Origin: an uncultured Spirochaetota bacterium
GTDB taxonomy: Bacteria; Spirochaetota; Brevinematia; Brevinematales; JAOACQ01
Reading direction: 5' to 3'
NCBI GenBank assembly: GCA_963835575.1
Contig: CAWIGG010000006.1
Coordinates: 256,001 to 320,000, forward strand
DNA length: 64,000 bases
The translations under genes were made by a program, and so were the position numbers. Below, piece after piece: positions 29,939 to 54,859 of this stretch (positions within the stretch are counted from its first letter, which is position 1; each line of letters opens with the position of its first letter). The notes under the pieces were generated by a model, which searched no databases, was not told the DNA's origin, and saw nothing but the letters and a program-made list of their open reading frames with translations.

Positions 29939-29985
29939 ATTTTTACATATATTTTGCCACTCTCCAGCCTAAAACCGTTGAAATT

Positions 29986-30279
29986 AAACATCCGTTCCCG
30001 AGGCCATTTTCCTCCAAACCCTAATCAGTAAAAATAAATATCTCGATTTATAGTTGTGTCATCCGCTATTATAATAGAAGAATTGAGGCACATATTTGCG
30101 GCAAGGATGCCGCAACCGACGCATAAAGCCATTGGACGGCGATATAAGGAGGCTATTTTAATCAGGGATCGTTTTTTTAAAAGCCGGATGACATACCTTC
30201 ATACAAACCGATAGCTTCGTATGAAAATGGCCTCGAAATAGGCATTTTTCTTTCGATTCACTTTCTTTTGTTGCCGCCG
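29986..30279. repeat. Structured ~320-nt repeat, copy 1 (continues 31954-31980 past the IS)
   Basis: Homologous to 52789-53075; several internal inverted repeats. Confidence 0.85.
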
Positions 30280-31953
30280 TTGCCTGTCGGTTTTTATAAC
30301 ATGCTTCATGGACATACGGCAGGGTTCCCGTTAAAATAAAACGGGAGAAAAAGATGGCAAGATTTGAAAAGAACAGCCTGGAGCAGGGTGAGTTCCTCGC
30401 GATCAATATAGGCGAGCAGTTTGATGAGAATTCCAGAGAATTTATACTAAAAGAATTCATCAAAAACCGTATTAAACTGGAGGATTTCGCGGCTTACTAT
30501 AAGAACGACCATAGAGGCAGAGAGATTAAAAATCCTCGGGATGTGATCTGTGCGGTACTCTACGGTTACATTACGGGAAATCGTATCAGCCGAAAGATAG
30601 AAGATTTGCTGAAAAAACACATTGGGTTTATGTATGTTTCAAACCGGCTGAAAATTGACCATTCGGTAATTTGCGAGTTCAAGGTACTTTTTCAGGAAAA
30701 GATCGAGGAGTTGTTCAGCCAGCTTTTATATATACTCAACGAAATGGGGTCTATAGATTGGGACATGGTAGTGGGTGACGGCACAAAGATCAAGGCCTAC
30801 GCGAGTAAGAATAAGAATGTGGGAAAGAAACATACCCGGAAGCTGATGGACACTTACCAGAAGATGGCGGAAAAGATTGTGAAACAAGACCTGGAACTGG
30901 AAGAATCTTACCGGGAAGGCAAGCTGGAGCAGCCTTATTACGAAGCGGAGAAGAAGCGGGTATCAAGGCGGAAAAAGATTTACGATAGTGTTTTGAACCA
31001 AATCGATGAATACAAAAAACAGGTAGAGAGAGGGGAAAAGACAGACGAAGAATTCACCAACCTGACTGATCCCGAAAGCAAGCTGATGTCTGGAAATCCG
31101 CATAGTGTGTTTATACAGGGATATAATTCGGCGATGATGGTCAGTAATAATGATGTGATTATAGATTTTGAAGCAATCACAACACCGGAAAAACAGCATA
31201 CGGAAGAAATGGTAAAGAGGGTGGAACAGAAAAAAGCGGAATTAAAAGTTGATAAGGCTAGCAAATACCTTTTTGATTCGGGTTTTCAGGACATGGAAGA
31301 GACAATCCGGATGGTGGAGGAAGGAAAGACCTTTATGTGGATACGAAAGAGCGGGATTTCAGTGATAAATCACAGAAGCGAAGAGACTTTAAACTGGAAA
31401 AGATTGATGACGAATATATCCTGGGATGCCGGGGCGGCCGTAAGGAAAATGGGTATTTAGATCGAAATAACCAAAGATATACATTTTTGTATTCACGGAA
31501 GGGCTGTGAAAGATGTCCATTTTTCAGTGAGTGTTATAAAAACATCAAACCGAAAACACAGCAAAAGACAGTAATTTTCAGTGAGTTTGAATTGAATAAT
31601 CGGTCTAAGATTGATGCTTATTTAACAAAACTTTACAGCGAAGAAGGGCAAAAGATATACAACCGCAGGATAGGTAAAGAACACGTATTTTCAAACATCA
31701 AAACACAGAAGGGTTATGTTCAGACAGTTTACAGAGGTCAACGGAAAGTGAATTTGGAGCTATGCTGGGTATCCCTTGCGCATAATTTTATGAAATATGC
31801 CCAATATTTGAGAAAATAGAGAGGATTTTGTATAGTCTGAGTATCGATTATTCGAAATTTATTATTAAAATCAGCTAAGCTGACAAAATTTTTATTTGCC
31901 CGCTTATTGTAAGGGGCTGGTTTGACTCCGAAAATGAAATAACCAACAGGCAA
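30280..31953 (+). mobile_element. IS1182 family element, copy 1 (1674 bp)
   Basis: IRs TTGCCTGTCGGTT / AACCAACAGGCAA; near-identical to 53076-54750. Confidence 0.88.
30354..31819 (+). pseudogene. IS1182 family transposase, frameshifted
   Basis: Split into ORFs 30354..31460 and 31337..31819; GGAAAGAC at ~31325 versus GGAAAAGAC in the intact copy. Confidence 0.88.
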
Positions 31954-32061
31954 GCTGGACAAAAGAAAGTGAACATTCCCGCAAATGTCATTTGTATAAA
32001 TCAAAAAATATTCTTATATTTATATAAGTCCCGCAGGGCAGTGGGATGTAAAGGAGGGCAT

Positions 32062-32622
32062 ATGCGGAGATTGATCGTTTTTAATTCGGTTTCGCTGGAC
32101 GGTTACTTTGTCGATGCTGACGGCGGTATGAGCTGGGCCCGCAATGCTAAAGAGGATAAAGAATGGGACGCTTTCGTCGAAGGCAATGCAAACGGCGGAG
32201 GCCTTCTGGTTTTCGGCAGGATCACCTATGAGATGATGGCAGGCTACTGGCCGACGCCGGCCGCGGCCAGGAATGATCTTCTTGTCGCGGAGCGGATGAA
32301 CAATCTGCCGAAGGCCGTGATTTCCAGGACATTGGACAAGGCGGCGTGGAACAATACAAAGCTGATAAAAGACATTTCGGAAATACGGAAGATAAAGGAT
32401 GAATCCGGGCCCGGCATGGCAATCCTGGGGAGCGGCAGCATAGTTTCGCAGCTGACGCAGGAGCGTTTGATCGACGAATACCAGATTGTGGTGGTCCCCG
32501 TTGTTCTCGGAGGGGGAAGAACGATGTTCGAAGGCGTGAGGGATAAGTTGAGCATGAAGCTGATAAAAACTCGGGCTTTTGCCAACGGAAATGTCCTGTT
32601 GTGTTACGAACCGGCGGTGTGA
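32062..32622 (+). CDS. Dihydrofolate reductase/RibD C-terminal family protein
   Basis: MRRLIVFNSVSLDGYF, FGRITYE, GSGSIV, LIDEY.IVV.PVVLGGG; GGAGG RBS before ATG 32062. Confidence 0.88.
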   Translation: MRRLIVFNSVSLDGYFVDADGGMSWARNAKEDKEWDAFVEGNANGGGLLVFGRITYEMMAGYWPTPAAARNDLLVAERMNNLPKAVISRTLDKAAWNNTKLIKDISEIRKIKDESGPGMAILGSGSIVSQLTQERLIDEYQIVVVPVVLGGGRTMFEGVRDKLSMKLIKTRAFANGNVLLCYEPAV

Positions 32623-32637
32623 AAAATCCAATTAATG

Positions 32638-33190
32638 TTTCACGCAGAGGCGCGAAGACCACAAAGGTTGGTTTTGAGATCTGAACATTACTCAAGACCT
32701 TTGCACAGTAAATTTAAGATAATTCGCTGCCTGATAAAACTTTAGACAATAAATTGCCGCTTTAAACTGGACTTTTGCACGGTTTCTATTTAATTAGCTG
32801 TTCCTGAAAAACCCTATAAGACCTCATAAATATTGGGTTTAAAGGCAAGAATAGTGTAAAATAACTCCCGGAAAATCGAAAAAAACACTTAAAAACCGGG
32901 AGTTTTAATAATAAAGCCGAAAGAAAAAAAGATTAAACTCTGTTAGCAACAATCTCCTTCGCTTAGCGCTGCTTCGCGTGACTTCGCGGAAAACAACGGT
33001 CCGCCAAGCCGCGCGAAGAGACGCGAAGAAGTGAATTTTTGCAAATAACTATGAAAACAGACTTTTTCAGGGTGAACTAATTATCAGTTAATGGTTTGCG
33101 GAAACCGTGCAAAAGTCTTTACTCGATTTTCAAGAGATTCTTTGCGTGCGGCGCCTGTCCCGAGCTTGCCGAGGGACGTCTTTGCGTGAT
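32638..33190. repeat. Multi-layer nested inverted-repeat element
   Basis: Outer CACGCAGAG/CTTTGCGTGA arms; perfect 17-bp IR 32770-32786/33101-33117; IR 32791-32811/33063-33083; inner hairpins 32863-32904 and 32957-33028. Confidence 0.8.
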
Positions 33191-33191
33191 A

Positions 33192-35849
33192 TTATCTAGG
33201 ATTTTTTTCGATGACAGGAAAGAGGATGGAAAAAGCCGTGCCCTTTCCAATGCCGCCGCTCGAGACGCTGATCTTTCCGCCCATTTCCTTCATAAAATTG
33301 GCGCATGTATGCAGGCCGAACCCATGGCCTGTTTTTTTTGTCGTGTAGCCGAATGAAAACAATTTTTTTATTTCCTTGTCTTCAATACCGGCGCCGTTGT
33401 CCGATATGATTAATCTGATAAAACCTCCTGTGGAATTGTCGGCTGCTATCGTCAGGATGCGGCTGGTTTTTTCTATATCCTGCATGGCTTCCAGGCCGTT
33501 TTTAATGATATTTACCAGAATCTGTATCAGCTTGGATTTCTGAGTTTTCAGTTTGAGATTTCCGGGAATATTTTTTATGACCCTGATATCCAGCATATCG
33601 ATCATATCGTTTTTTAATTTTAAAGCGGTATCAACTGCCTCTGTAACGGATATTTCTTCAATCCAGGTCATCCTGTAGTCGTCGACGGCGTAGACATTCA
33701 GATCCTTGACGATCTCTATAATCAAATCTATTTTTTCCTGAAGGGAACGTGCCTCTTTTTCAACTGTGCTTTCTTCCTGCTGGAAATAGCCGCTGAGGGA
33801 TATGAAATATTTAAATATAACTTCCCCTCTCGGATCATTTTCGAAAAAATCCTTAAACCGGTCCTGATTTTCTTTCAGGATATGGATCGCATCCAGGAAT
33901 CCTCCCACATGCGATTTGTTGAGATGGCTGATGATAGTGTCTGAAGAAATGCAGACGCTGTTCAGCAGATTGCCGATATTATGGATCATACCGGCCGCCA
34001 CTTCTGCCATGCCCGCCTTATGGGCATTATCAAGAAGCTCTTTTTGCGCTTCCTTCAGGGCCTTTGTCCGCTCATCAACCATGGTTTCAAGCTTTTTATT
34101 ATAACGGCGCACTTCTTTGATTAAAGAAACGCCCTTGAGAGAGATGCCGAGCTGTTTGGACAGATTTTCGAAGATTGTCTCATCCGTATTGCCGGCCTCA
34201 AGAAGAATAAATCCGACATCCTCGCTTTTAAAATAAAGGGGCAAGAGGAAGTATGCAAAGCGTTTTTCGGAGCGGAAGTTGCCGGGGACAAGATTCCGGC
34301 TGGGGAAAAATTTCTTTTTTGTGTCGATCCGGACATTATCGCTCTGCTGATAATGAAAAAACATCCGGGACAATTTCAGACCGCTTTTTTTATCCCTGCT
34401 GTAAAGTGAAACAAAACAGCTCTGAATGCCCAGTGTGGGAAGCTGTTCCCCGAGGGTTTTTTTAATCTGCTTTTCGTCATAAGCGTAATTAATACCCTGG
34501 TTAACTCTGTCGACTACGACATGCTGAAGTTCGTTATTAATGGCTAAACTTGTCAGTATCTGTTCCGCAAAGACGCCTATCGAAATAAGGGTCTGTTCTT
34601 TCAATTCTCCGATTTTCTGAGTATACTCGGGCAGATTTTCCCTGATAAATGAAAAAAGGTAATTCGCGATCATATAAAAGTATGAAAAATGGATTCCTTT
34701 CTGATAGGTTTTCATGATTAATTTACGGAATATATCGAGAAAAACACCCTTTTCACCGCTGAATACTTCTTTGAAAAGCGCATCGCTTAATTCAAGAGCC
34801 CAATCTGAATAATTGGTATCGGTTTTTATTATCGGGAACAGCGTTTCCAGTAATGCCGGAAGTCTTTCAATTATAGTATATGCTGGCCTGGTGTTTCCTT
34901 TGCTGTTAATATTCTGAATACCGGTTATAAGCGGGTCTGACGAGTGTCCGAACATGTTGGCGCACCCGCATGAATTCCTGATCATCAGAGTCCCGGACAG
35001 GGTCACCGATCTGGGGACATTTTTCCCGTTTATCATTCCCATGATGAGTTCAAAGGCTTTCCGGCTTATTTCATGATAGGGCATTCCGATTGTTGTCAAG
35101 GGCGGATAAACGCTGATAGCGTCATGGATATCGTCGAAACCGGTGACGGCGACATCTTCGGGTACTTTCAAGCCCTGCGCCTGCAGTTCCGAGATGGCAT
35201 CAATGGCCAGGTAGTCATTTGAAGCGATCAGGGCTTTGAATTGCCCCCGTTTTTCATTCAGCAGATAACGGACAGCGCGGTTGCCGATAAATCGTTCAAA
35301 ACGCTCGCAATAATAAACCAGTCCGGGTTCAAAAGGGATCCCATGCATCTCCAGACCTTTTTTATAACCTGTAAGCCTTTCAATGGCATTATTATCGCTC
35401 TGCCGCCCCGCCAGGAAGGCGATTTTCTTGATGCCATGAATCTTGACAAGGTGGTCAACAATTCTGATAATGGCGTTTTCATTGTCAAGTATGATGCTGC
35501 AGCTGTCCGGGATGGATTTCAGGATATGAACGGCGGGGATGGGATGGTATTTTTCAAAAAACTGGGCCGTTTCCTTTTCAGTTATATATCCGCCGACAGA
35601 GCCTGTGAGGCAGATGATACCGTCTACCGTACTGGGGCTGATCAGGTCATAGACCCTGTTTCTCTGCCTGTACGCGCCGATGGTATCCTTGATGGATCCG
35701 CCCAGGACGCCGATAATATTGCAGCCGTTAATTTCCGCCGCATGATTGATGCCTTTCCATAAATTTTTCTGGTAATCATCGTTCATATAATCAATCATAA
35801 CGGCAATGGCCGGCCTGATCGTTTTCTTTTTACCGGAAATCTTATTCAT
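33192..35849 (-). CDS. Cytoplasmic histidine kinase with an N-terminal LacI-type sugar-binding domain
   Basis: ASNDYLA, VPEDVAVTGFDD, PPLTTI; HNIGNLLN H-box; N, G1 (DNGAG), F (GYTTK), G2 (GHGFGL) boxes. Confidence 0.88.
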   Translation of the reverse strand: MNKISGKKKTIRPAIAVMIDYMNDDYQKNLWKGINHAAEINGCNIIGVLGGSIKDTIGAYRQRNRVYDLISPSTVDGIICLTGSVGGYITEKETAQFFEKYHPIPAVHILKSIPDSCSIILDNENAIIRIVDHLVKIHGIKKIAFLAGRQSDNNAIERLTGYKKGLEMHGIPFEPGLVYYCERFERFIGNRAVRYLLNEKRGQFKALIASNDYLAIDAISELQAQGLKVPEDVAVTGFDDIHDAISVYPPLTTIGMPYHEISRKAFELIMGMINGKNVPRSVTLSGTLMIRNSCGCANMFGHSSDPLITGIQNINSKGNTRPAYTIIERLPALLETLFPIIKTDTNYSDWALELSDALFKEVFSGEKGVFLDIFRKLIMKTYQKGIHFSYFYMIANYLFSFIRENLPEYTQKIGELKEQTLISIGVFAEQILTSLAINNELQHVVVDRVNQGINYAYDEKQIKKTLGEQLPTLGIQSCFVSLYSRDKKSGLKLSRMFFHYQQSDNVRIDTKKKFFPSRNLVPGNFRSEKRFAYFLLPLYFKSEDVGFILLEAGNTDETIFENLSKQLGISLKGVSLIKEVRRYNKKLETMVDERTKALKEAQKELLDNAHKAGMAEVAAGMIHNIGNLLNSVCISSDTIISHLNKSHVGGFLDAIHILKENQDRFKDFFENDPRGEVIFKYFISLSGYFQQEESTVEKEARSLQEKIDLIIEIVKDLNVYAVDDYRMTWIEEISVTEAVDTALKLKNDMIDMLDIRVIKNIPGNLKLKTQKSKLIQILVNIIKNGLEAMQDIEKTSRILTIAADNSTGGFIRLIISDNGAGIEDKEIKKLFSFGYTTKKTGHGFGLHTCANFMKEMGGKISVSSGGIGKGTAFSILFPVIEKNPR

Positions 35850-35924
35850 AACAAAAATCCCCGCTTTAATTATATCATAGACCAGTATGAGGATTATCGC
35901 AAGAGAAAAAATTTAAAAAAGATC

Positions 35925-36108
35925 GGAACCACAGATTTCACTGATTACAAGATTACAATTATTAATATGGAAAAAAAAGAAAGGTCCTTGAACATTGTTT
36001 TGACGGCTCTTATTACGGGTTTCATTAAAAATATCAGTGAAATCTGTGCATGGTTCGACAAGCTTGGTTCCCGAGCATGCCGAGGAACACCATGGCGTCT
36101 GTGGTTCC
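35925..36108. repeat. Periodic-arm inverted repeat (CACAGATT units) with TTCGACAAGCT/CCGAGCATGCCGAG palindromes inside the right arm
   Basis: GGAACCACAGATTTCACTGAT... / ATCAGTGAAATCTGTG[insert 36049-36094]GCGTCTGTGGTTCC. Confidence 0.75.
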
Positions 36109-36126
36109 AACCCGATAGAATGTAAA

Positions 36127-37074
36127 TTAAACAAGCCCCGCGCTTTCATCAAACCCGAGCATCAGGTTCATATTCTGCACCGCCGCACCGGAAGCACCTT
36201 TGCCGAGATTGTCCAGGCGGGCGATAAGCAGGATCTGCTCTTCATGACCTGTAACGAAAATTTCCATGTTATTTGTCTCATTGCATCCGGTCGGGCTGAT
36301 AAAACCGTCGCCTATTTTATCCGTCTCTTCTTTTGAAATAATTTTAATAAAACGCTCATTTTTGTAATGTTCCAAAAGTATTTCCCTTAAAGTGCCGGGA
36401 GTGTTTTTTCCCCTGAGCCCTGAGGGATAAAGCGGTATGAAAACCAGAAGGCCGTTATAGAAATTTCCGACTATGGGAACAAAATGAGGGTACTCTGCAA
36501 GGCCGGTGTATTTCTTCATTTCCGGCAGGTGCTTATGATGCAGATTGAGATTTTTAGGCCTTGCGCAGATTTCTTCCCAGACGCTTTTATCTTTAGATTC
36601 AAAATCCGCGATCATCTTTTTCCCGCCGCCGCTGTAGCCTGTGACGACATAAGACACAACGGGATAATTAACCGGTACAATGCCGCGCTGGATAAACGGT
36701 GCGAGCGCGAGTATAAATCCCGTCGGGTAGCATCCGGGATTCGATACCATTTTGGAAGCCTTGATTTTTCCGCGGTTGTTTTTATTCAATTCAGGCATTC
36801 CGTACACCCAATCCGGGTCCGTCCGGAACGCCGTGCTTGTATCAATGACTTTTGCCCCAGTCTTTTTGAGGATTTGAACGGCTTCTTTTGAGGCGTCGTC
36901 CGGCAGGCAGAGAATGACAAGGTCTGCCTGCTTATAGCGCTTTTCCTTTTCAGCCGGGTTCTTTTTATCTTCCTCGGATATTTCGATCATTTCTATATCA
37001 TCGCGGTTTTTCAGCCTTTCGAAAATTTTCAAGCCTGTCGTTCCATGCGCGCCGTCGACAAATATTTTTTTCAT
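36127..37074 (-). CDS. argC: N-acetyl-gamma-glutamyl-phosphate reductase (type 2)
   Basis: FVDGAHGTTG, SNPGCYPTG, TGYSGGG, LDNLGKGASGAAVQNMN. Confidence 0.93.
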   Translation of the reverse strand: MKKIFVDGAHGTTGLKIFERLKNRDDIEMIEISEEDKKNPAEKEKRYKQADLVILCLPDDASKEAVQILKKTGAKVIDTSTAFRTDPDWVYGMPELNKNNRGKIKASKMVSNPGCYPTGFILALAPFIQRGIVPVNYPVVSYVVTGYSGGGKKMIADFESKDKSVWEEICARPKNLNLHHKHLPEMKKYTGLAEYPHFVPIVGNFYNGLLVFIPLYPSGLRGKNTPGTLREILLEHYKNERFIKIISKEETDKIGDGFISPTGCNETNNMEIFVTGHEEQILLIARLDNLGKGASGAAVQNMNLMLGFDESAGLV

Positions 37075-37212
37075 AGGGTTTCCTCTTTTCATAAATTCAC
37101 TGAATAATAAAAATATATTATTTGATTATAACTTTTTTTACGCTTTTTTTCTAATAAGAATGACATTGTAAAATAATGCTGATGATATGCTCTGTTTGAA
37201 ATAAAGCAGGAT

Positions 37213-37917
37213 TCAGGCTTTATCCCGTTTCTTGATGGCGGTATTGAGGTGTGTATAGATGAGTTCCTGATTTTTAGTCGGGAACTGCAGTGCCGCTTCC
37301 AATTCCTTTACGGCTTCCTTGAAGTTTCCCGATTGAAACTCCGCCCAGCCCAGGCTGTCGCGGTAGGCCGCGGAATTCGGGCTTAAAGCCACTGCTTTTC
37401 TGGATTCATTGACGGCTTCCGGCAGGTTGATCCCCAGCTCGGCATAAGTATAACCCAGGTTATTATGAGCGCTCGCGTTATTGGGATCGAATTGAAGCGC
37501 TTTTTTAAAATTAAAAATAGCCAGATCGAATTTTTTGGTCAGGTAGTAAACATAACCCAGGGCTGAAAATGACATGGAGCTTTCGGGATTGATTTCCAGG
37601 GCTTTTTTAAAGCATTTTTCAGCCTTGGAATAGGATGATAACTCCGTATAGATAAAACCGAGGAGCATATTGGTCTGGATAAGCTGTATGATGGAAAGCT
37701 CAGCCGATGTGGTGATTTCTTTAAAACATGCGGCGGCCTTGCTGTATGAGGATGTGTTCGCGTAACAGACACCCAGATAATATGAGATGATATCGTGATT
37801 TCCCAGGTCCTTTTCCAGCTCTGTCAGGTCTTCAATGGCAGGCTGGTATCTCCCCTTATTGATAAAAGTATCCAGTATCGTGTCGATCCTGTTCTGAAGT
37901 TTTGAATTCTTTTTCAT
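37213..37917 (-). CDS. Tetratricopeptide repeat protein
   Basis: Several TPR motifs (ALEINP..., NNLGYTYA, DSLGW). Confidence 0.85.
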   Translation of the reverse strand: MKKNSKLQNRIDTILDTFINKGRYQPAIEDLTELEKDLGNHDIISYYLGVCYANTSSYSKAAACFKEITTSAELSIIQLIQTNMLLGFIYTELSSYSKAEKCFKKALEINPESSMSFSALGYVYYLTKKFDLAIFNFKKALQFDPNNASAHNNLGYTYAELGINLPEAVNESRKAVALSPNSAAYRDSLGWAEFQSGNFKEAVKELEAALQFPTKNQELIYTHLNTAIKKRDKA

Positions 37918-37945
37918 AAATGGTTTTCCCCTCCGCTTATAAAAA

Positions 37946-38005
37946 AACCTGTCCCTCTGCAGTAGAGACGCACGGCCGTGCGTCTCTACTGCAGAGGGAC
38001 AGGTT
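37946..38005. repeat. Perfect 60-bp palindrome containing a GTAG-type REP
   Basis: AACCTGTCCCTCTGCA-GTAGAGACGCACGGCCGTGCGTCTCTAC-TGCAGAGGGACAGGTT. Confidence 0.9.
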
Positions 38006-38029
38006 ATGGTTTATGTGATGGACGGCATT

Positions 38030-38737
38030 CTATTTATTATATTTTGCGGCATTAGTGGAAGTAGTTGTAGTTGCCGAATTTTCTTCCTCATAAACGGAAG
38101 CTTTGTCCCACTTTGTCATGGCAATGCTCCTCTGGGCTGTTTCCTTGACAAAATTAAGATAAGGCCCCTGCGTTATGCGGAGCATATAAACGAAAGAAGA
38201 CTTATCGCCGATTTTGCCCAGAGCCTCGCAGAGATCGGCCACAAGACCGTTATCTTTGACCCCTTCCAGTTCGCTGTGCATGACGTCCAGTACCGACTTC
38301 TTCCTGGCCGCTTCGCCCATTAAGCCCAGCGCCTGAGCGGCAGCTCTTTTAACAGTATTATCCGTTTCATTTCTCAGCATGCCGACCAGATAATTTGCGG
38401 CCCTTTCATCCCCGATGTCGGCCAGAGCCTTTGCGGCGGCGACTTTAAGCTTCCAGTTGTAAAGCTCTTTTCCGCCGGCAACCAGCCTTTTGGTCTGCAG
38501 CATTTCAATCAGCATATCAACGGACTCTTTGGCTTTCAGTTCGCCCAATCGCTTCATGGCCTTGATTCTTATTTCATCATCTTCCGGAGAGGTTGAGCGT
38601 ATCACGTCTATCAGCTGGGGAATCCCGTCCGGGCCGACTGTATCAAGAGCATCTTCTGTTATATTATGCGCTCCATAGAAAAGATTGACTGTAAATAAAA
38701 AGGCAAGCGCGATGAAAAAAATATGACACTTCTTCAT
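38030..38737 (-). CDS. HEAT-repeat protein with signal peptide
   Basis: AAAKALADIGDERA, AAAQALG, EALGKIGD repeats. Confidence 0.85.
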   Translation of the reverse strand: MKKCHIFFIALAFLFTVNLFYGAHNITEDALDTVGPDGIPQLIDVIRSTSPEDDEIRIKAMKRLGELKAKESVDMLIEMLQTKRLVAGGKELYNWKLKVAAAKALADIGDERAANYLVGMLRNETDNTVKRAAAQALGLMGEAARKKSVLDVMHSELEGVKDNGLVADLCEALGKIGDKSSFVYMLRITQGPYLNFVKETAQRSIAMTKWDKASVYEEENSATTTTSTNAAKYNK

Positions 38738-38870
38738 AATTTTCTCCTATTAAGGGTATTTAAACCACTCATATTGTGATTTATTTTCGGAATTTGTCAA
38801 GTATTTCTTAACTGTCGCCAAAAAACTAATATTTATCTTATTTAATTATAATAAATAAGCATCAAACCGG

Positions 38871-40571: not shown

Positions 40572-40795
40572 CTCTCTCTTTACTTCTATAATTATATGAT
40601 TTTTTAATTAATACAGGAATTGAAATACCCGGGCCGGTAAATTATTCTTTCTCTAATAATGATAATATATCTTTTTTTTGAATAGATATCAAGGATGATT
40701 TAATAATTTCCTGATATGAGCGGATATTTTGACTTTTTTCTTTCTAATTATTAGAATATTTTCCGGTTGGGAAATATTTTAATAAGGCTGGATAT

Positions 40796-42283: not shown

Positions 42284-42294
42284 TTCCGATTGAG

Positions 42295-43383: not shown

Positions 43384-43414
43384 CGATTTAATAAATCATA
43401 ATTCAATTCAGTTT

Positions 43415-45085: not shown

Positions 45086-45087
45086 TA

Positions 45088-45492: not shown

Positions 45493-45718
45493 AAAAGTCT
45501 CCTCTGCAGGGGCATAAAATTTTACTCTCAAACAGTTTATCAATTGACTTTAGCACAGCGCCCTGATATTGTCAAATGATGCTTAAAAGAACTTGACGGG
45601 CATAATTGTTTTATGCCATGGCCGAATTTCTTTATTTTTTATAACGGATGCTTTATAATGAGATTTAAGTAATAATCCATCTAATTAATAGTTTAATTTT
45701 ATTCAAGCGGGTGAATAA

Positions 45719-45970
45719 ATGGCAAAGAAAGCCGAAAAGACCGGGCGCAGTTTTGAAGAGGATATGCACCGTCTGGAAGAGATCGTGGATAAACTGGAAA
45801 GCGGTGTGCCTGTCGAAGAGTCTCTTCTTCTTTATGAGGAAGGGATGAGGCTGTCCAGTAAACTGGAAGTGAAGCTCTCGGAAATCGAGAGAAAAGTCTA
45901 CGAGGTTAAGAATATCTCAAAGCTCGCCAGCGGCGAGGATACGGAAATGGAAGTGGGCCTGTTTAAATAG
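45719..45970 (+). CDS. xseB: Exodeoxyribonuclease VII small subunit
   Basis: SFEE...RLEEIV.KLE....EESL..YEEGM.L. Confidence 0.9.
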   Translation: MAKKAEKTGRSFEEDMHRLEEIVDKLESGVPVEESLLLYEEGMRLSSKLEVKLSEIERKVYEVKNISKLASGEDTEMEVGLFK

Positions 45971-45996
45971 GATTTGTTTTTTAACGGGAGGATTTA

Positions 45997-46335
45997 ATGC
46001 CTTTAAGGCCGACCAGGATCGGGGTGAATATAAAAGCGAGTTATACCCTGAAAAATTGCGAAGGTGAAGGCATAATAGTGGATATCTCCACCGGCGGCCT
46101 GGCCATGGAAGTCAGGCAGATATTTGTCATAGGCGATCTTGTGCATGTCATATTCAGGCTTCCGGATACCAATAATGATGAAGTTGATTTCTGGGGAATT
46201 GTCCGTACTGTTAACGGGAATATGCTCGGTGTGAAATATGAAGAGATATCGAATGAGAATATTGAAAAATTAGACCGCTTTGTCACCAGTTTGATACTTA
46301 CGGCGGGAAGGCAGGCCAGAGAGCCTTTTGAGTGA
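45997..46335 (+). CDS. Single-domain PilZ protein
   Basis: RxxR-like N-terminus, DISTGG motif, GVKY. Confidence 0.75.
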   Translation: MPLRPTRIGVNIKASYTLKNCEGEGIIVDISTGGLAMEVRQIFVIGDLVHVIFRLPDTNNDEVDFWGIVRTVNGNMLGVKYEEISNENIEKLDRFVTSLILTAGRQAREPFE

Positions 46336-46340
46336 TATAA

Positions 46341-46372
46341 GCATTTCCAAAAACCCAGGTTTTTGGAAATAC
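46341..46372. repeat. CATTTCCAAAAAC palindrome, minimal form
   Basis: GCATTTCCAAAAACC-CA-GGTTTTTGGAAATAC; related copies at 5279-5313, 24137-24187 and 43126-43337. Confidence 0.7.
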
Positions 46373-46431
46373 CCGGTAATATAATAAAAGAAGCGGTAAT
46401 GAGTTATCGCTTATTTTTTTGGGAGCTTTGA

Positions 46432-47184
46432 TTGAAAATCGGCTTTTTCTATAAGAAGGGTGAAGAAAAGGGTTTTTACGGGGCGCTTTACGGCGGTAAA
46501 GTGAGGAAATTAAACGATTTTTTACTGAGTAATGAATGGGAAGAGTATGAATTGTCAGAACTGGACATATCGGTGCCCGCGAACCCTTCAAAAATCGTGG
46601 CCGTCGGGCTGAATTACTCCCGTCATGCCGAGGAAATGAAAGGTAAAATCCCGGAAGAGCCCGTTCTATTTTTAAAGCCACCATCAAGCATTTTGCCGCA
46701 TAAAGGAAAAATTATATATCCCGCTTCAGCCGGCAGACTTGACTATGAGGCCGAACTGGCGGTAGTCATCAGCAAAACGGCAAAGAATATTGAAGCGGGC
46801 GAAGCCCCGGAACATATCCTGGGTTATACGGCCTTTAATGATGTGACGGCGAGGGACCTGCAGGCAAAAGACGGGCAATGGACAAGGGCCAAAGGTTTTG
46901 ACACTTTCGCCCCGTTCGGTCCGTTCATTGAAACCGCGATAGCCGATCCGGGGAAGCTGAAAATCCAGGCTGTCCTGAACGGGGAAGTAAAGCAGGACTC
47001 GAATACGTCCAATATGATTTTTGACGTTTTTACCCTTGTGAGTTTTATCAGCAAAGTTATGACCCTTTACCCGGGGGATGTGATCGCGACAGGAACGCCG
47101 GAAGGCATCGGACCTATGCGGAAAGGCGATGAAATAATCATCCGGATCGAAGGCCTGGACGATCTTGTTAATAGGGTAGCCTGA
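46432..47184 (+). CDS. Fumarylacetoacetate hydrolase family protein
   Basis: KIVAVGLNY..H, LDYEAEL, NDVTARDLQ, KGFDTF.P.GP, PGDVIATGTP.G.G. Confidence 0.9.
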   Translation: MKIGFFYKKGEEKGFYGALYGGKVRKLNDFLLSNEWEEYELSELDISVPANPSKIVAVGLNYSRHAEEMKGKIPEEPVLFLKPPSSILPHKGKIIYPASAGRLDYEAELAVVISKTAKNIEAGEAPEHILGYTAFNDVTARDLQAKDGQWTRAKGFDTFAPFGPFIETAIADPGKLKIQAVLNGEVKQDSNTSNMIFDVFTLVSFISKVMTLYPGDVIATGTPEGIGPMRKGDEIIIRIEGLDDLVNRVA

Positions 47185-47348
47185 AGGCCTGCATATATTT
47201 AAACAGTATTGTTTTTACACTGCTTGAGAGCTCATTTTTTTAAAAAATAAAATAATTTTGTTCCATTGAGGATCAGTCTGCACCCATAGAAATTTTACTT
47301 TCCCTTCATTATTAATTATATTTAATGGTGAATTAAAACCATGATCAG

Positions 47349-47470
47349 CCGAAATTGAGCGATTTATTTTTTATTTAACTATAGCGTATATAATTCCCCT
47401 CACCATTTTGTCGGGCAGCGCATGAGAAGCTAACAAAATGGTGAGGGGTAAAAGAATCGCTTAATTCCGG
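47349..47470. repeat. CCCTCACCA-arm palindromic element, copy 4, inside an outer IR (upstream of clpP)
   Basis: Inner CCCCTCACCATTTTGT/ACAAAATGGTGAGGGG 47396-47448; outer CCGAAATTGAGCGATT/AATCGCTTAATTCCGG. Confidence 0.85.
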
Positions 47471-47515
47471 GTTTATGTTATATTACTATTTATAGGATTA
47501 TAAAAGGAGTTTATT

Positions 47516-48097
47516 ATGTTGATACCAATGGTTATTGAGCAGAGCAACAGGGGTGAAAGGGCCTATGATATTTATTCCAGGCTTTTAAAAGATAGAATCG
47601 TGTTTCTGGGGGCGGTGATCGATGATGATGTGGCGAACCTTGTGATTGCCCAGCTTCTGTTCCTTGAGGCCGAAGACCCGGAAAGGGACATCAATCTCTA
47701 TATCAATTCGCCGGGAGGCGTAGTCACTTCAGGCCTGGCGATTTATGATACAATGCAGTATATCAAGTGCGATGTTTCCACGATCTGCATCGGCGAGGCC
47801 GCATCGATGGGCGCGGTGCTTCTGGCCGCCGGGAAAAAAGGCAAGCGTTTTACACTGCCGCACTCCCGGATTATGATCCATCAGCCTTCCGGAGGGACCC
47901 AGGGCCAGGCCAAGGACATCAAGATCCAGGCGGAGGAAATGCTCCGGACAAAAAGCACGCTGGACAATATACTGGTCAAGCATACAGGCCAGGTCCTCGA
48001 CAAGATCGAGCTGGATACGGACAGGGATTTCTTTATGTCGGGGTCCGAGGCAAAAAAGTACGGGATTGTGGATGAAATTCTTGAAAAAAGGAAATAG
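47516..48097 (+). CDS. clpP: ATP-dependent Clp protease proteolytic subunit
   Basis: [27 protein letters not shown]. Confidence 0.97.
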
Positions 48098-48099
48098 GT

Positions 48100-49392
48100 A
48101 TGACAGTAAGAAGAGAGGATATGGATAAAAATCCTCAAAAAAACAGGAAAGTCATTCAATGTAATTTCTGCGGAGCGATGTCTTCGGATGTTTACCGCAT
48201 GGTAAAAGGCGACGGCGAGGTCTATATCTGCGACAGCTGCCTGTACAACTCGTACCAGGCCATTCAAAATGAGCATAAGCAGTCAGCCATAAATACGGTC
48301 AATAAACTGCCGAAGCCAAAGGAGATGAAGGAATTTCTGGACCAGTACGTCATAGGCCAGGACAACGCGAAAAAAATCCTTTCCGTGGCGGTTTATAATC
48401 ATTACAAAAGGATTTTTTCGAACTCTTTCATGAAAGATAAAAATGACGTGGAGATAGAAAAAAGCAATATTATTCTATTAGGGCCCACGGGAAGCGGTAA
48501 AACGCTCCTTGCCAAGACTCTGGCAAGGCTCCTGGATGTGCCCTTCGCGATAGCCGACGCGACGACGCTGACGGAAGCGGGATATGTGGGGGACGATGTC
48601 GAAAATGTCCTCCTCAGGCTCCTGCAGAACACGGCGGGCGGATATTTTGACCCGGAATCCAGGGAACTGGAACAGCTGATCTCACGGGCCGAAGTCGGAA
48701 TAGTTTATATCGATGAGATCGACAAGATAGCCAGGAAGAGCGAGAATGTTTCCATTACCCGCGATGTTTCGGGCGAAGGGGTCCAGCAGGCGCTCCTCAA
48801 GCTGATAGAAGGAACGGACTCGTCTGTGCCGGCTTACGGAGGGAGGAAGCATCCCCAGCAGAAAAACATCATGATGAATACCACCAATATATTATTTATT
48901 GTGGGCGGGGCTTTTGTCGGGCTGGATGATATCATCAAAACAAGGATCGGCAAGAAGGAAGTCGGGTTTAAAAGCGCGCAGGTCAATAAAAAGATCGATA
49001 CCGATACGATCTTGAAGGAAGCCATACCCCATGATTTCATTAAATACGGCCTTATTCCGGAACTGGTCGGGAGGCTTCCGGTCACGGCGGCGCTCCACGA
49101 ACTGACGGATGAAGAGCTCAAGAAAGTCCTGACGGACCCGAAGAACGCGATCATCAAGCAGTACCAGAAATTGATGGGCCTTGAGAATGTCGAGCTTGAG
49201 TTTACGGAAGAGGCCATAAACGAGATCGTTAAAAAAACAAAAGAGAAAAAAACAGGCGCGCGCGGGCTGCGCTCAGTGATAGAGGAAGTGATGCTGGACA
49301 TTATGTATGAAATACCGTCCATGAAAAAAGTCTCGCACTGCGTCATTGATAAAGATGTTGTCTGTACGGGCAAAGAGCCCAAAATAGCGTAA
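48100..49392 (+). CDS. clpX: ATP-dependent Clp protease ATP-binding subunit
   Basis: Zn finger CNFC...[35 protein letters not shown]. Confidence 0.97.
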
Positions 49393-49404
49393 TGAGGTAA
49401 GAGA

Positions 49405-51765
49405 ATGGCTGATGTTGATAACAAAAAAAGAGAAAAGCTGCCCCTGATACCATTGAGGGGCATTGTCGTTTTTCCATATATGGTTGTTCCGCTTATAATC
49501 GGCAGGACAACGTCCGTCAAAGCGGTAATGCACGCGTTTGAGAACAACCTGCCGCTTTTCCTGTCCGCCCAGAAGAGCAAGGATGTTGAAAATCCCTCGG
49601 ACCAGGATATTTATGAGGTAGGCTGTATTTCCACGATCCTGGAACTGATCAATATGCCGAACGGGATGGTCAGGATCCTTGTCGAGGGCTTGAAAAGGGG
49701 AAGGGTCTCCAAATATGTGCAGGATGACGGCTTTTATCTGGCCGAGGTGGACGACCTGGAAAGCAGGGTATTGAACAGCAATGAGTTGGAAGCCCTGATC
49801 AGGACGCTTAAAGACAAGTTCGTCGAATATATCTCCCTCAATCCGAAGATCCCGAAGGAAACGGCCGCCTCGATAGTCGCGATCGACGATTCGGAAAAAT
49901 TGATAGACGCTGTTATGGCCAATATCCCGTCGCAGGTGACGGACAAGCAGGCCATCCTGGAAGAGAATGAGATAAACGAAAGGCTGACCAAAACGCTCGC
50001 GCTGGTCCATAAAGAGATCGATGTCCTGAAAATAGAGGATGATATCAACAAGCGCGTCCAGGACAGAATGGAAAAGATGCAGAAAAAATATTTTCTGAAC
50101 GAGCAGCTCAAGGAAATCCGCAAGGAACTGGACGAGGGTGAAAGCCAGGATGAAGGGATCGCCGAGCTGAAGGAAAGGATGAAGGGAAAGGAAATGCCCG
50201 AATCGGTCAAGGAAAAGTTTGAAGGGGAGCTGGAAAGGCTTTCAAAAATACCGAATATGTCGCCGGAATATACGGTCCTCTATAATTATATCGAATGGCT
50301 TGTGGACCTGCCCTGGGGCATTTACACGACCGACAATAAAGACCTGGTGGTGGCGGAAGACATCCTGGAAACAGAGCATTACGGCCTGAAGGAAGCGAAG
50401 GAAAGGATCATCGATTTTATCGCCGTGCGCCAGCTGAACCCTAAGTCCAAGGGGCCGATCATCTGCCTTGTCGGGCCTCCCGGCACAGGAAAGACATCGC
50501 TGGCGAAATCCATCGCGCACGCGCTGAACCGCAATTTTATACGTGTGTCCCTCGGGGGCGTTAGGGACGAGGCGGAAATCCGCGGCCACCGCAGGACCTA
50601 TGTCGGGGCACTGCCGGGGAAGATCGTCCAGATGATGAAGAAGGCCGGTTCGATGAACCCCGTCTTCCTGATGGATGAAATAGATAAAATGAGCATGGAT
50701 TTCCGGGGCGATCCCAGTTCGGCGCTATTGGAAGTACTGGATCCGGAGCAGAATAACGCCTTTAACGACCATTACCTCTCGCTCGATTTTGACCTTTCTT
50801 ATGTCTTCTTTCTGACTACCGCAAATAACTTATATAATATTCCCATTCCCTTAAGGGACAGGATGGAGATCATAGAAATACCCGGCTATACTGAACTGGA
50901 AAAAAAGGAGATCGCCAAGAAATTCCTCATACCCAAGCAGATGATCGAAAACGGGCTGAGCGATGTGAAGATCAATTTCACCGATAACGCCATTCTGGAC
51001 ATCGTCCGGTTTTACACAAAAGAGGCCGGGGTGAGGAACCTCGAAAGGAACGCGGGGAAGGTGATCCGGAAGATAGCCCGGGAAAAGGTGAAGCATGACA
51101 TCAAAACGGTCCAGATAAATTCGAAAAGAATTGAAAAATACCTGGGCGTCAGGAAGTTCGACTTTACCAGGGGCCAGAAGGAACCGCGCGTCGGTGTGAT
51201 AGCCGGATTGGCATGGACCGAGAACGGCGGCGACGTTCTTTATATCGAAAGCTCCATCTTTAAAGGAAAGGGCGACCTCATCCTCACGGGCCAGCTGGGG
51301 GAAGTGATGCAGGAATCGGCGAAGATCGCCTTTTCGTACGCCAAGGCCGTGGCGGAAAAATACGGCATAGACCCGGCCAAGTTCAAAACAAACGACCTGC
51401 ATATCCATGTGCCGGAAGGCGCCATACCCAAGGACGGGCCGTCCGCGGGCGTGACCATGATCAGTTCGATCATTTCCACTTACGCCGGCAAAAAGGCGAA
51501 GAACGATTACGCCATGACGGGCGAGATCACCCTCAAGGGCGATGTCCTGCCGATCGGCGGCCTTCGTGAAAAGCTCCTGGCGGCGAAGAGGGGCGGCATC
51601 TTCAGCGTCATTGTCCCGAAGAATAATGAAAAGGACATCAGCGAAATGCCGGAACAGATTTTAAAAGACCTCAACCTTTATTATGTTGAGAGGATTGAAG
51701 AGGTCCTGGAGAAGATTCTTATTGATGATAAGCCACCGGCGGCGAGGAAGAAGAAAAAATCCTGA
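49405..51765 (+). CDS. lon: Lon protease
   Basis: GPPGTGKTS, RGHRRTYVG, PKDGPSAG, EKLLAA. Confidence 0.97.
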   Translation: MADVDNKKREKLPLIPLRGIVVFPYMVVPLIIGRTTSVKAVMHAFENNLPLFLSAQKSKDVENPSDQDIYEVGCISTILELINMPNGMVRILVEGLKRGRVSKYVQDDGFYLAEVDDLESRVLNSNELEALIRTLKDKFVEYISLNPKIPKETAASIVAIDDSEKLIDAVMANIPSQVTDKQAILEENEINERLTKTLALVHKEIDVLKIEDDINKRVQDRMEKMQKKYFLNEQLKEIRKELDEGESQDEGIAELKERMKGKEMPESVKEKFEGELERLSKIPNMSPEYTVLYNYIEWLVDLPWGIYTTDNKDLVVAEDILETEHYGLKEAKERIIDFIAVRQLNPKSKGPIICLVGPPGTGKTSLAKSIAHALNRNFIRVSLGGVRDEAEIRGHRRTYVGALPGKIVQMMKKAGSMNPVFLMDEIDKMSMDFRGDPSSALLEVLDPEQNNAFNDHYLSLDFDLSYVFFLTTANNLYNIPIPLRDRMEIIEIPGYTELEKKEIAKKFLIPKQMIENGLSDVKINFTDNAILDIVRFYTKEAGVRNLERNAGKVIRKIAREKVKHDIKTVQINSKRIEKYLGVRKFDFTRGQKEPRVGVIAGLAWTENGGDVLYIESSIFKGKGDLILTGQLGEVMQESAKIAFSYAKAVAEKYGIDPAKFKTNDLHIHVPEGAIPKDGPSAGVTMISSIISTYAGKKAKNDYAMTGEITLKGDVLPIGGLREKLLAAKRGGIFSVIVPKNNEKDISEMPEQILKDLNLYYVERIEEVLEKILIDDKPPAARKKKKS

Positions 51766-51889
51766 TTTTCAAATCATTCTTTTTATTCAATAAAGGCAAT
51801 ATTTTCACAATCATCGTGAGGCATTCATTATTTCAATTTTATTCTATTATATTTTAAACCGTCAATAATTGACGGGGAAATTAGCGTCT

Positions 51890-51938
51890 TTTTTTTCTTT
51901 TCGAGAGGCTGTGAGACAGCCTCTCGAAAAGAAAAAAA
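51890..51938. repeat. 23-bp-arm hairpin (possible terminator or collapsed element)
   Basis: TTTTTTTCTTTTCGAGAGGCTGT-GAG-ACAGCCTCTCGAAAAGAAAAAAA. Confidence 0.75.
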
Positions 51939-52047
51939 GTACGCAACCCCTTTGACTGCCAGTCGTGTCAAAATTGTTGCCGTTTAAATAAATACCATTT
52001 GAATTATATAAAAAATTATCTTATAATAATATGAGCGAGGTGGTAAA

Positions 52048-52272
52048 ATGAATTATAAAGACAGGCTGGAAATAAATCCCGTCATTATGGTCGGCAAGCC
52101 GGTCATTAAGGGGACCCGCATCACCGTTGAATTATTGCTTCGGAAGCTGTCGGAAGGGATGACAATGGAGGAATTGCTCACTGCCTACCCAAACCTCAAA
52201 CACGAAGACATATACGCCGTTTTATCATATTCGGCGGATGTCATCGGCAAGGAGGAGATGCTTGTCCCTTAA
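52048..52272 (+). CDS. DUF433 family antitoxin
   Basis: P.IM.GKPVIKGTRITVE..L..L..G...EELL..YP.L...DI. Confidence 0.9.
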   Translation: MNYKDRLEINPVIMVGKPVIKGTRITVELLLRKLSEGMTMEELLTAYPNLKHEDIYAVLSYSADVIGKEEMLVP

Positions 52273-52618
52273 AATCCTTGCCGATGAAAATGTCGATTTC
52301 CGGATTGTGAAACAGTTGAGAGAATCGGGAATAACTGTTTTATCGGTGCTGGAGTCCGGCTCCGGCAAATCCGATATCCAGGTAATGGAATTAGCACGGC
52401 AAAACGATGCCCTCATTTTGACGGAAGACAGTGATTTCGGGGAGCCTGTTTTTTCCTATCAATATAAGAATACCGGAATTGTTTTCATACGTTACGTCAA
52501 CGAAAATTTACAGCAAATCGTCAAAAACATCTCATCTGTCATATCGAAATACGGCATATCCCTATACAAAAAGTTTGCTGTGATAACACCGGATAAGATC
52601 AGAGTAAGAGATTTATAA
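52262..52618 (+). CDS. DUF5615 family PIN-like toxin
   Basis: KILADENV, D..VM..A, ILTEDSDFGE; probable TTG start 52262 overlapping the antitoxin. Confidence 0.85.
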   Translation: MSLKILADENVDFRIVKQLRESGITVLSVLESGSGKSDIQVMELARQNDALILTEDSDFGEPVFSYQYKNTGIVFIRYVNENLQQIVKNISSVISKYGISLYKKFAVITPDKIRVRDL

Positions 52619-52788
52619 GTAAAAAGTAATTAACGAGGAATGATGATAGCGCCGGACATGGGAAAACACAGACAAGAATGTCTGTGATACCGCTGGTACT
52701 GCCGGATAAGCCTTTCTCCAATTCTTGTATTAAAAAAGAATATTTTATTATGAATGAATAGAATAATAATCATAAAAGAAGCAATGCA

Positions 52789-53075
52789 AAACATCTGTTC
52801 CCAAGGCCATTTTCCTCTTATCCATAATCTACAATCTCGATTTATAGTCGTGTCATCTGCTAATATAATAATAGAAGAGAGGCACATGCTTGCGGCAAGG
52901 ACGCCGCAACCGACGCATAAAGCCATTGGACGGCGATATAAGGAGGCTATTTTAATCAGGGATCGTTTTTTTAAAAGCCGGATGACATACCTTCATACAA
53001 ACCGATAGCTTCGTATGAAAATGGCCTCGAAATAGGCATTTTTCTTTCGATTCACTTTCTTTTGTTTTAATGCTG
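52789..53075. repeat. Structured ~320-nt repeat, copy 2 (continues 54751-54777 past the IS)
   Basis: Homologous to 29986-30279. Confidence 0.85.
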
Positions 53076-54750
53076 TTGCCTGTCGGTTTTTATAACATGC
53101 TTCATGGACATACGGCAGGGTTCCCGTTAAAATAAAACGGGAGAAAAAGATGGCAAGATTTGAAAAGAACAGCCTGGAGCAGGGTGAGTTCCTCGCGATC
53201 AATATAGGCGAGCAGTTTGATGAGAATTCCAGAGAATTTATACTAAAAGAATTCATCAAAAACCGTATTAAACTGGAGGATTTCGCGGCTTACTATAAGA
53301 ACGACCATAGAGGCAGAGAGATTAAAAATCCTCGGGATGTGATCTGTGCGGTACTCTACGGTTACATTACGGGAAATCGTATCAGCCGAAAGATAGAAGA
53401 TTTGCTGAAAAAACACATTGGGTTTATGTATGTTTCAAACCGGCTGAAAATTGACCATTCGGTAATTTGCGAGTTCAAGGTACTTTTTCAGGAAAAGATC
53501 GAGGAGTTGTTCAGCCAGCTTTTATATATACTCAACGAAATGGGGTCTATAGATTGGGACATGGTAGTGGGTGACGGCACAAAGATCAAGGCCTACGCGA
53601 GTAAGAATAAGAATGTGGGAAAGAAACATACCCGGAAGCTGATGGACACTTACCAGAAGATGGCGGAAAAGATTGTGAAACAAGACCTGGAACTGGAAGA
53701 ATCTTACCGGGAAGGCAAGCTGGAGCAGCCTTATTACGAAGCGGAGAAGAAGCGGGTATCAAGGCGGAAAAAGATTTACGATAGTGTTTTGAACCAAATC
53801 GATGAATACAAAAAACAGGTAGAGAGAGGGGAAAAGACAGACGAAGAATTCACCAACCTGACTGATCCCGAAAGCAAGCTGATGTCTGGAAATCCGCATA
53901 GTGTGTTTATACAGGGATATAATTCGGCGATGATGGTCAGTAATAATGATGTGATTATAGATTTTGAAGCAATCACAACACCGGAAAAACAGCATACGGA
54001 AGAAATGGTAAAGAGGGTGGAACAGAAAAAAGCGGAATTAAAAGTTGATAAGGCTAGCAAATACCTTTTTGATTCGGGTTTTCAGGACATGGAAGAGACA
54101 ATCCGGATGGTGGAGGAAGGAAAAGACCTTTATGTGGATACGAAAGAGCGGGATTTCAGTGATAAATCACAGAAGCGAAGAGACTTTAAACTGGAAAAGA
54201 TTGATGACGAATATATCCTGGGATGCCGGGGCGGCCGTAAGGAAAATGGGTATTTAGATCGAAATAACCAAAGATATACATTTTTGTATTCACGGAAGGG
54301 CTGTGAAAGATGTCCATTTTTCAGTGAGTGTTATAAAAACATCAAACCGAAAACACAGCAAAAGACAGTAATTTTCAGTGAGTTTGAATTGAATAATCGG
54401 TCTAAGATTGATGCTTATTTAACAAAACTTTACAGCGAAGAAGGGCAAAAGATATACAACCGCAGGATAGGTAAAGAACACGTATTTTCAAACATCAAAA
54501 CACAGAAGGGTTATGTTCAGACAGTTTACAGAGGTCAACGGAAAGTGAATTTGGAGCTATGCTGGGTATCCCTTGCGCATAATTTTATGAAATATGCCCA
54601 ATATTTGAGAAAATAGAGAGGATTTTGTATAGTCTGAGTATCGATTATTCGAAATTTATTATTAAAATCAGCTAAGCTGACAAAATTTTTATTTGCCCGC
54701 TTATTGTAAGGGGCTGGTTTGACTCCGAAAATGAAATAACCGACAGGCAA
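53076..54750 (+). mobile_element. IS1182 family element, copy 2 (1675 bp)
   Basis: Perfect 13-bp IRs TTGCCTGTCGGTT / AACCGACAGGCAA. Confidence 0.88.
53150..54616 (+). CDS. IS1182 family transposase (intact)
   Basis: LYGY...SRKIE...GFMY N-terminus, DGTKIKA.AS, NLTDPES, DSGF, CERCP...C, YNRR...EHVF..IK. Confidence 0.88.
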   Translation: MARFEKNSLEQGEFLAINIGEQFDENSREFILKEFIKNRIKLEDFAAYYKNDHRGREIKNPRDVICAVLYGYITGNRISRKIEDLLKKHIGFMYVSNRLKIDHSVICEFKVLFQEKIEELFSQLLYILNEMGSIDWDMVVGDGTKIKAYASKNKNVGKKHTRKLMDTYQKMAEKIVKQDLELEESYREGKLEQPYYEAEKKRVSRRKKIYDSVLNQIDEYKKQVERGEKTDEEFTNLTDPESKLMSGNPHSVFIQGYNSAMMVSNNDVIIDFEAITTPEKQHTEEMVKRVEQKKAELKVDKASKYLFDSGFQDMEETIRMVEEGKDLYVDTKERDFSDKSQKRRDFKLEKIDDEYILGCRGGRKENGYLDRNNQRYTFLYSRKGCERCPFFSECYKNIKPKTQQKTVIFSEFELNNRSKIDAYLTKLYSEEGQKIYNRRIGKEHVFSNIKTQKGYVQTVYRGQRKVNLELCWVSLAHNFMKYAQYLRK

Positions 54751-54859
54751 GCCGGACAAAAGAAAGTGAACATCCCCAGGCTGCCAGTCGTGACAAAAAT
54801 CCTATGATCTTATCGTAAAAAAGCTTTTTTAAGCATTTTTATAAAAATGCAGATTAAAT

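Follow-up and report, generated by a model that had tools for sequence, protein, structure and literature searches.

An insertion sequence (IS) found twice in the loop of the same kind of hairpin raises the question of whether its transposase selects this site and, if so, whether DNA sequence or DNA structure is read. This situation was encountered in a 64,000-nucleotide stretch of DNA from an uncultured Spirochaetota bacterium (contig CAWIGG010000006.1, positions 256,001 to 320,000; hereafter the window), where two copies of an IS1182-like element reside in the terminal hairpin of a dispersed repeat of about 330 nt. Excision of either IS restores a 15-bp stem at the 3' end of the repeat copies, which start near 29986 and 52789. 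The placement in a common hairpin and the ends of both elements (Table 1) had been recognized correctly in a sequence-only reading of the window, which further proposed structure-specific targeting and a role of the repeat as safe haven. Analysis of the source genome (G000; 4.39 Mb, seven contigs, positions on which carry the prefixes C2, C4, C5 and C6; other G numbers denote other genomes) and of related elements identified the hairpin as a true hot spot of the element in G000. The hairpin preference is real and clade-wide, hairpins are entered in both orientations, and the preference is looser in G000. The explanation favored here, with some reserve, is that of an IS1182-like element with its usual 4-bp duplication and a strong but non-exclusive preference for hairpin loops, whose transposase probably reads a two-sided target in duplex DNA and not an extruded hairpin.

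Copies of the element and their insertion sites

Genome G000 harbors 24 full copies of the element, which are at least 99.88% identical, and a 58-bp remnant (L002, C2:247593-247650) that comprises the right end only, lies inside a repeat hairpin and probably arose by a deletion with endpoints at the left end and at a 5-bp look-alike inside the element. Four of the full copies touch the repeat hairpin, namely the two in the window, one at C5:49457 in opposite orientation and one at C4:1013865, where the insertion is at a right arm that stands alone, without a partner arm, behind another hairpin; the remnant occupies a fifth hairpin. The repeat was counted by means of an iterated profile, which yielded 41 matches in G000 and, after merging of seven insertion-split pairs, about 34 copies, some of them partial. 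For four of 24 insertions in approximately 34 × 330 bp, the enrichment corresponds to P=4.4e-7 when the whole genome is taken as background and to P=1.5e-5 for DNA outside open reading frames (ORFs); counting three independent events of 22, the values are P=2.5e-5 and P=3.6e-4, respectively. The hairpin also occurs without the element: 29 of the approximately 34 repeats are free of this IS, looped IS-free copies exist in G000, and further IS-free looped hairpins with varied loops were found in G004 (about 20) and G009 (about 25).

The remaining 20 copies have non-repeat flanks, an outcome that the sequence-only reading had itself named as refuting its proposal. Among the 24 empty sites that were rebuilt, 13 have an ORF of at least 100 aa spanning the junction; two of these represent one site in a duplicated neighboring IS, and about 11 gene disruptions are credible, e.g., in ORFs of 1,197, 1,409, 637, 597 and 564 aa. 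Since 20 copies are located elsewhere and about 11 within ORFs, the ideas of exclusive targeting and of a safe haven were abandoned, and recognition of T-rich/A-rich sequence became the likelier account. Furthermore, the element was observed at an identical position in two of the six copies of another multi-copy element (C5:162932 and C2:1643158).

Regarding the transposase, the gene of copy 1 carries a frameshift caused by the loss of 1 nt near 31325 and that of copy 2 is intact; the 13-bp terminal inverted repeats match at every position in copy 2 and at 12 of 13 in copy 1. The domains DUF772, DDE_Tnp_1 and DDE_Tnp_1_6 were detected in the single ORF of copy 2, all three above the Pfam cut-off, an architecture typical of the IS1182 family. 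The best-matching transposase family is indeed IS1182 (NF033551; residues 10-484, E 8e-63), with a score of 213 bits that falls short of the cut-off of 270 bits. For this reason the element is referred to as IS1182-like, and its transposase appears to represent a divergent Spirochaetota clade; its closest relatives belong to Spirochaetota. Residues D142, D308 and E443 as well as Y436-R439-E443-K450 are kept in 90–100% of 29 homologues, their catalytic roles being assigned by position only. The Y-x2-R-x3-E-x6-K motif is IS4-like, resembling that of IS4-type enzymes. A sequence search for relatives of solved structure returned none, with just two matches at E above 0.2, and a promoter and terminator scan of 29800-32200 gave nothing beyond the level of shuffled sequence.

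In order to cover related elements, genomes were scanned with a single protein query, which returned no relative, and with alignments, which returned 23, 14 (three from the genome itself) and 17 loci. Sixteen unique sites with at least 47% identity and both flanks were kept. One-ended loci (L048, L049, L060, L066, L074, L091, L093-L095) and L067, duplicates (L062, L064, L065, L069, L071, L073, L089, L092) and a distant group (L052-L059, L096-L104) were left out. The 16 sites are not independent, because a single genome supplies seven of them and a second genome three. In the best-sampled relative genome, five of seven copies reside in a related long repeat, at its terminal hairpin; one of these is in forward and four are in reversed orientation. 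Clean 4-bp duplications were found at 12 of the 16 sites, including nine of the 11 sites with long stems, where the duplication lies at most 1 nt from the hairpin axis. The stems of these sites differ in sequence, and the sites are pre-existing hairpins.

Table 1. Coordinates of the two element copies and of the repeat parts flanking them (window positions).
Feature	Position	Strand	Remarks
IS1182-like element, copy 1	30280..31953	+	1,674 bp; ORFs 30354-31460 and 31337-31819
IS1182-like element, copy 2	53076..54750	+	1,675 bp, 13-bp terminal inverted repeats
Intact transposase ORF, copy 2	53150..54616	+	488-aa DDE; DUF772 + DDE_Tnp_1 + DDE_Tnp_1_6
Dispersed repeat body, copy 1	29986..30256	+	Stems are nested (29999-30011 with 30223-30235)
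Left arm of terminal T-rich hairpin, copy 1	30257..30271	+	
Left 4-bp target duplication GCCG, copy 1	30276..30279	+	
Right 4-bp flank GCTG, copy 1	31954..31957	+	Mismatched to left flank
Right arm of terminal hairpin, copy 1	31959..31973	+	
Dispersed repeat body, copy 2	52789..53050	+	3' part equals that of copy 1 (position 30109 onward)
Left arm of terminal hairpin, copy 2	53051..53065	+	
Non-native "loop" and left 4-bp flank GCTG, copy 2	53066..53075	+	Common to IS copies C5:49457 and C4:102941 (coding DNA at the latter)
Right 4-bp flank GCCG, copy 2	54751..54754	+	
Right arm of terminal hairpin, copy 2	54756..54770	+	

Sequence or structure as the target

A perfect 4-bp duplication frames 16 of the 24 copies in G000 (GCTG in seven cases), none of these 16 being in the repeat. 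The 15 unique sites among them feature a T-tract spanning about -10 to -4 and an A-tract spanning about +4 to +11. Thirteen of the 15 have T at -7 and -6, and 12 of the 15 have A at +7, +9 and +10; the commonest core is GCTG. A weight matrix trained solely on these 15 off-repeat sites was ranked over 8,772,142 positions. The rebuilt window sites appeared among the top 2-44, the remnant site among the top 5-14, the lone-arm site among the top 532-2,893 and C5:49457 among the top 148-9,369. Occupied window sites scored 11.1-13.6, compared with 0.9-9.4 for IS-free looped hairpins. Site-specific pairing was not detected at the off-repeat sites, where stems of 5.8 bp compare with 5.4 bp after swapping of flanks between sites (p=0.18 for 15 sites; p=0.29 for 19 unique sites), and empty off-repeat sites exhibited no excess in folding energy or stem length over swapped flanks (p=0.26 and 0.12). 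Apparent stems at these sites do exceed those of random DNA (5.8 vs. 3.5 bp); since the excess is kept upon flank swapping, it is attributed to composition. Moreover, none of the 17 loop-less perfect hairpins of the repeat carries this IS. Together with the insertion at the lone arm, these results lend no clear support to the structure-specific targeting initially proposed.

In the favored explanation, the target would consist of a pyrimidine tract, four G/C-rich base pairs and a purine tract in ordinary duplex. A dimer of the DDE transposase, moving by cut and paste as its resemblance to IS4-type enzymes in the YREK motif would suggest, would make a 4-nt staggered cut, and a palindrome with the right spacing would offer each subunit its best half-site. 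Looped hairpins are thus proposed to be the top sites because the palindrome serves the half-sites of both subunits. Few looped hairpins would have been available in G000 and most would have been filled, with the remaining copies going to weaker matches, genes included.

Several results weigh against this explanation. For the five occupied sites together, the matrix predicts only about 0.4-1.1 of 24 insertions, compared with the four to five seen, and free looped or half sites contribute just 0.016 expected insertions; the matrix itself was built on 15 sites, and targets were rebuilt, some of them being chimeric. Stems of 10-18 bp are present at 11 of the 16 sites of the relatives, as opposed to three of 23 unique G000 sites and 0.2% of random sites, and the relatives' flanks pair site-specifically (12.5 bp vs. 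7.5 bp when swapped; 0 of 20,000 permutations as high). The distance between the TTTCTTT word and the duplication ranges from 1 to 6 nt in relatives, and the G000 matrix places several of their sites only within the top 1-2%, and two sites in G002 only within the top 4% and 19%. In view of this pairing, variable spacing and low ranking, a structure or bending component may contribute to target choice. Furthermore, a distant subgroup (about 31% identity; L052-L059) adjoins G/C-rich palindromic repeats, suggesting a role of palindromes in themselves throughout the family.

Alternatively, the transposase might recognize an extruded hairpin or cruciform, perhaps with the extra upstream T-tract folding back as a third strand, and cut across the loop, the off-repeat sites then being weak, transient hairpins. 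We regard this as a tentative and rather unlikely alternative. Besides the long stems of differing sequence in relatives, with the duplication at the axis, and a hot spot above the matrix expectation, it is in agreement with the longer apparent stems off the repeat and with the same-family element IS1272, which is reported to target hairpins without a sequence consensus in the relevant parts of PMC4923244 and PMC5678879. However, the stem excess survives flank swapping and thus reflects composition, loop-less perfect palindromes are unused, one insertion occurred at a lone arm, and about 11 copies are located in coding DNA. The triplex variant draws on the appearance of the sequence and on class definitions given in part of PMC4666352. 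Fifteen clean off-target sites and the hairpin sites are available for one enzyme, with relatives providing natural stem variants, so a simple assay could decide between sequence and structure. If true, structure reading by a DDE transposase that duplicates 4 bp would explain a family habit described only from genomes.

Mismatched duplications occur in eight of the 24 copies, comprising all four at the repeat and four of the 20 elsewhere. In the window the mismatch is crosswise (GCCG|GCTG for copy 1, GCTG|GCCG for copy 2); the GCYG motif noted beside the IS in the sequence-only reading is present, but it is the 4-bp target duplication in mismatched form. The two window repeats are the most alike of 298 pairs (92.4%; median 79.6%), without any difference after 30108 in the aligned part, and identity continues to 30272, corresponding to 164 identical flanking bases. 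As the repeats are so similar and identical up to the hairpin, the two copies probably record one event. Their use as independent evidence was rejected, the flanks being too alike. To the left of copy 2 lies a 10-nt segment that is common to C5:49457 over 25 nt and to C4:102941 over 19 nt. In the latter place it codes for the end of a membrane protein, and the first part of the gene adjoins the IS copy at C6:153015; this gene (135 aa) is split over two contigs in G000 and intact in G002 and G166. Both of these IS copies have crosswise duplications, representing either a rearrangement through the IS or an assembly mis-join. Because the segment recurs at other IS copies, the differing loop of copy 2 is partly imported flank and not native variation; the hairpin is the target, as had been deduced from differing loops. 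Flank mismatches were also found in two of 11 copies of an IS1380-family element and three of six copies of a second IS. They are therefore not specific to this transposase and point to recombination in the host or to an assembly error. The flanks of the eight copies were likely scrambled when identical copies later underwent exchange (host recombination or gene conversion) or by an error of assembly, and the same process probably made the two window sites alike.

Could the hot spot be a product of such exchange, with one insertion in a repeat spread by gene conversion and selection purging copies from genes? The 164 identical bases in the window, the demonstrable swapping of flanks among IS copies and a linker variant common to the four IS-bearing looped repeat copies would fit, but the four insertions are not all in one orientation and one of them uses a different arm, hairpins of this kind were also entered in independent genomes and metagenome contigs, with a separate 4-bp duplication at every insertion, and the enrichment persists for three events against non-ORF DNA. 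Absence of targeting is accordingly very improbable; the relatives largely refute it, and what it can account for is limited to the similarity of the two copies in the window. Hardly more credible is carry-over of flanks by the transposase, in which the donor flank would pair with the target arm and take the place of some of the loop, in a manner similar to the "stem-loop replacing" model for IS1272. A matched duplication is missing at all four hairpin insertions and the remnant, compared with four of 20 cases elsewhere, the common flanks terminate in microhomology with the hairpin arm, two G002 copies have a left flank of 15-16 nt in common, and L042/L043 a right flank of 20 nt. On the other hand, duplications are clean at nine of the 11 long-stem sites of relatives, unrelated IS1380 copies mismatch likewise, and one pair is a plain reciprocal exchange splitting a gene across two contigs, for which an assembly error is possible. 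The hairpin as part of the element, i.e., as longer terminal repeats, would account for its presence at both window copies; this was rejected and is next to impossible, as 20 of 24 copies lack it and it occurs IS-free here and in relatives. In the most far-reaching proposal, a Spirochaetota DDE clade would recognize the structure of the DNA, be it a hairpin or an intrastrand triplex, within an undescribed structured repeat of about 330 nt that occurs throughout the lineage. This repeat would be a docking site shared by no fewer than three mobile elements, namely two IS1182-like elements and a group II intron, every one of them at a fixed position of its own, and the donor flank would join the target pairing. 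As a whole, this proposal appears unlikely.

Relation to known insertion sequences

The element resembles the IS1182 family in its best full-length match, the DUF772 and DDE domains, the short inverted repeats and the 4-bp duplication. It differs from known members in its sub-cut-off score, in the TTTCTTT/AAAGAAA hairpin of an undescribed repeat as target and in its loose preference in G000. Some IS1182 members reportedly duplicate just the loop. The relevant section of PMC7335449 gives a duplication range of 2-60 bp for the family, and part of PMC4923244 cites Siguier et al., 2015, for members that target palindromes. With IS1272/TnSha1 of staphylococci, as portrayed in portions of PMC5678879 and PMC4923244, the element shares the family, insertion into hairpins, both orientations and recurrent hot spots. 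For IS1272, the same portions describe no duplication, deletion of part of the stem-loop and no sequence consensus (PMC5678879, PMC4923244), whereas the element studied here duplicates 4 bp, leaves both arms intact and has a clear sequence motif, and thus does not replace stem-loops.

Insertion into repetitive extragenic palindromic (REP) sequences is a further parallel. In the part of PMC1525189 concerned, ISs of five families are described to target REPs, and IS1397, ISKpn1 and ISPsy8 (IS3), IS621, ISPa11 and ISPpu9/10 (IS110) and ISRm22 (IS4) are named. Repeated insertion at one position of a palindromic repeat is common to these and to the present element, ISPsy8 inserting at the symmetry axis of the hairpin (same part of PMC1525189). 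"Type 1" REP-specific ISs are defined there by 100% of copies in REPs of 21-65 nt (PMC1525189); in contrast, four of 24 copies (five of seven in the best relative) are so placed here, and the host repeat comprises about 330 nt with nested stems. Since targeting of palindromes and REPs by ISs, including IS1182, is already known, the finding represents a new target and clade and not a new principle. A literature search conducted without spirochaete-specific terms, in a library lacking most subscription journals and ISfinder, and with the supplementary target lists of PMC1525189, PMC4666352 and PMC5678879, which might contain similar hairpins, outside its scope, returned no description of the IS clade or the repeat.

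The host repeat and its surroundings

The repeat is composed of two long-range stems, an inner hairpin and the terminal T-rich hairpin (GTTCAC...GTGAAC). Compensatory changes in the inner hairpin were found in four of 15 aligned copies, and folding of one copy gave z=-5.4. Its commonest ending in G000 is a loop-less perfect hairpin of 18 bp (17 copies). Relatives of the repeat in G006 and G009 retain the same stems with differing sequence; BLAST with the G000 sequence detected it in three of 40 other genomes, chiefly as fragments. No match at gathering score was obtained from Rfam for the window and the repeat loci, with sub-threshold matches only on 12 G000 loci and one G006 locus. Given a shape conserved across genera and no Rfam match, the repeat may merit a separate study.

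Other mobile elements also occupy the repeat. A group II intron is present in four copies (C4:452775-454799, C2:94364-96388, C5:88364-90388 and C6:409283-411307; reverse transcriptase/maturase above cut-off, Rfam RF02005 and RF00029), three of which reside at one fixed site in the inner hairpin, the fourth site having the same upstream 12 nt. A second IS1182-like element of about 1.82 kb (C5:371704-373516, C5:86515-88327, C4:206442-208255, C2:2025826-2027638, C5:235896-237708 and C6:388079-389891) was found at one position of the repeat body in four of six copies, with duplications of 5-7 bp; the repeat at C5:86.4-90.5 kb hosts this element plus the intron. Three more IS1182-like elements (C6:168899-170632, C6:115052-116752 and C5:344044-345727 plus copies; 25-28% identity to the element studied here) have targets of their own, namely attC-like sites and CACAGAG-type hairpins, and the IS1182 family seems to divide the G000 repeats among its members. 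The IS1380-family element in the window (25436-27011) belongs to a set of 11 copies that have A/T-rich duplications of 5 bp; one copy of this set lies inside the repeat. In addition, a lone hairpin of the loop-less type of this repeat family at 51884-51944 contains a central 19-bp palindrome between 4-bp duplications, which looks like the footprint of another IS; a full element with these ends was not found in the genome.

Approximately ten repeat copies have a further 100-150 nt upstream in common. Accessory genes are frequent 5' of the repeat, such as an HNH-like gene (29029-29895) and a DUF5615/PIN-like gene (52238-52618) in the window and, judged from N-termini, putative restriction-modification or Cas3 genes at other copies; housekeeping genes are commoner on the 3' side. 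After the end of the HNH-like gene, 29893-29920 resembles the start of an integron attC site. Palindromic repeats of different families are located at 37946-38005 (30-bp perfect arms) and 59321-59559 (43-bp arms) of the window.

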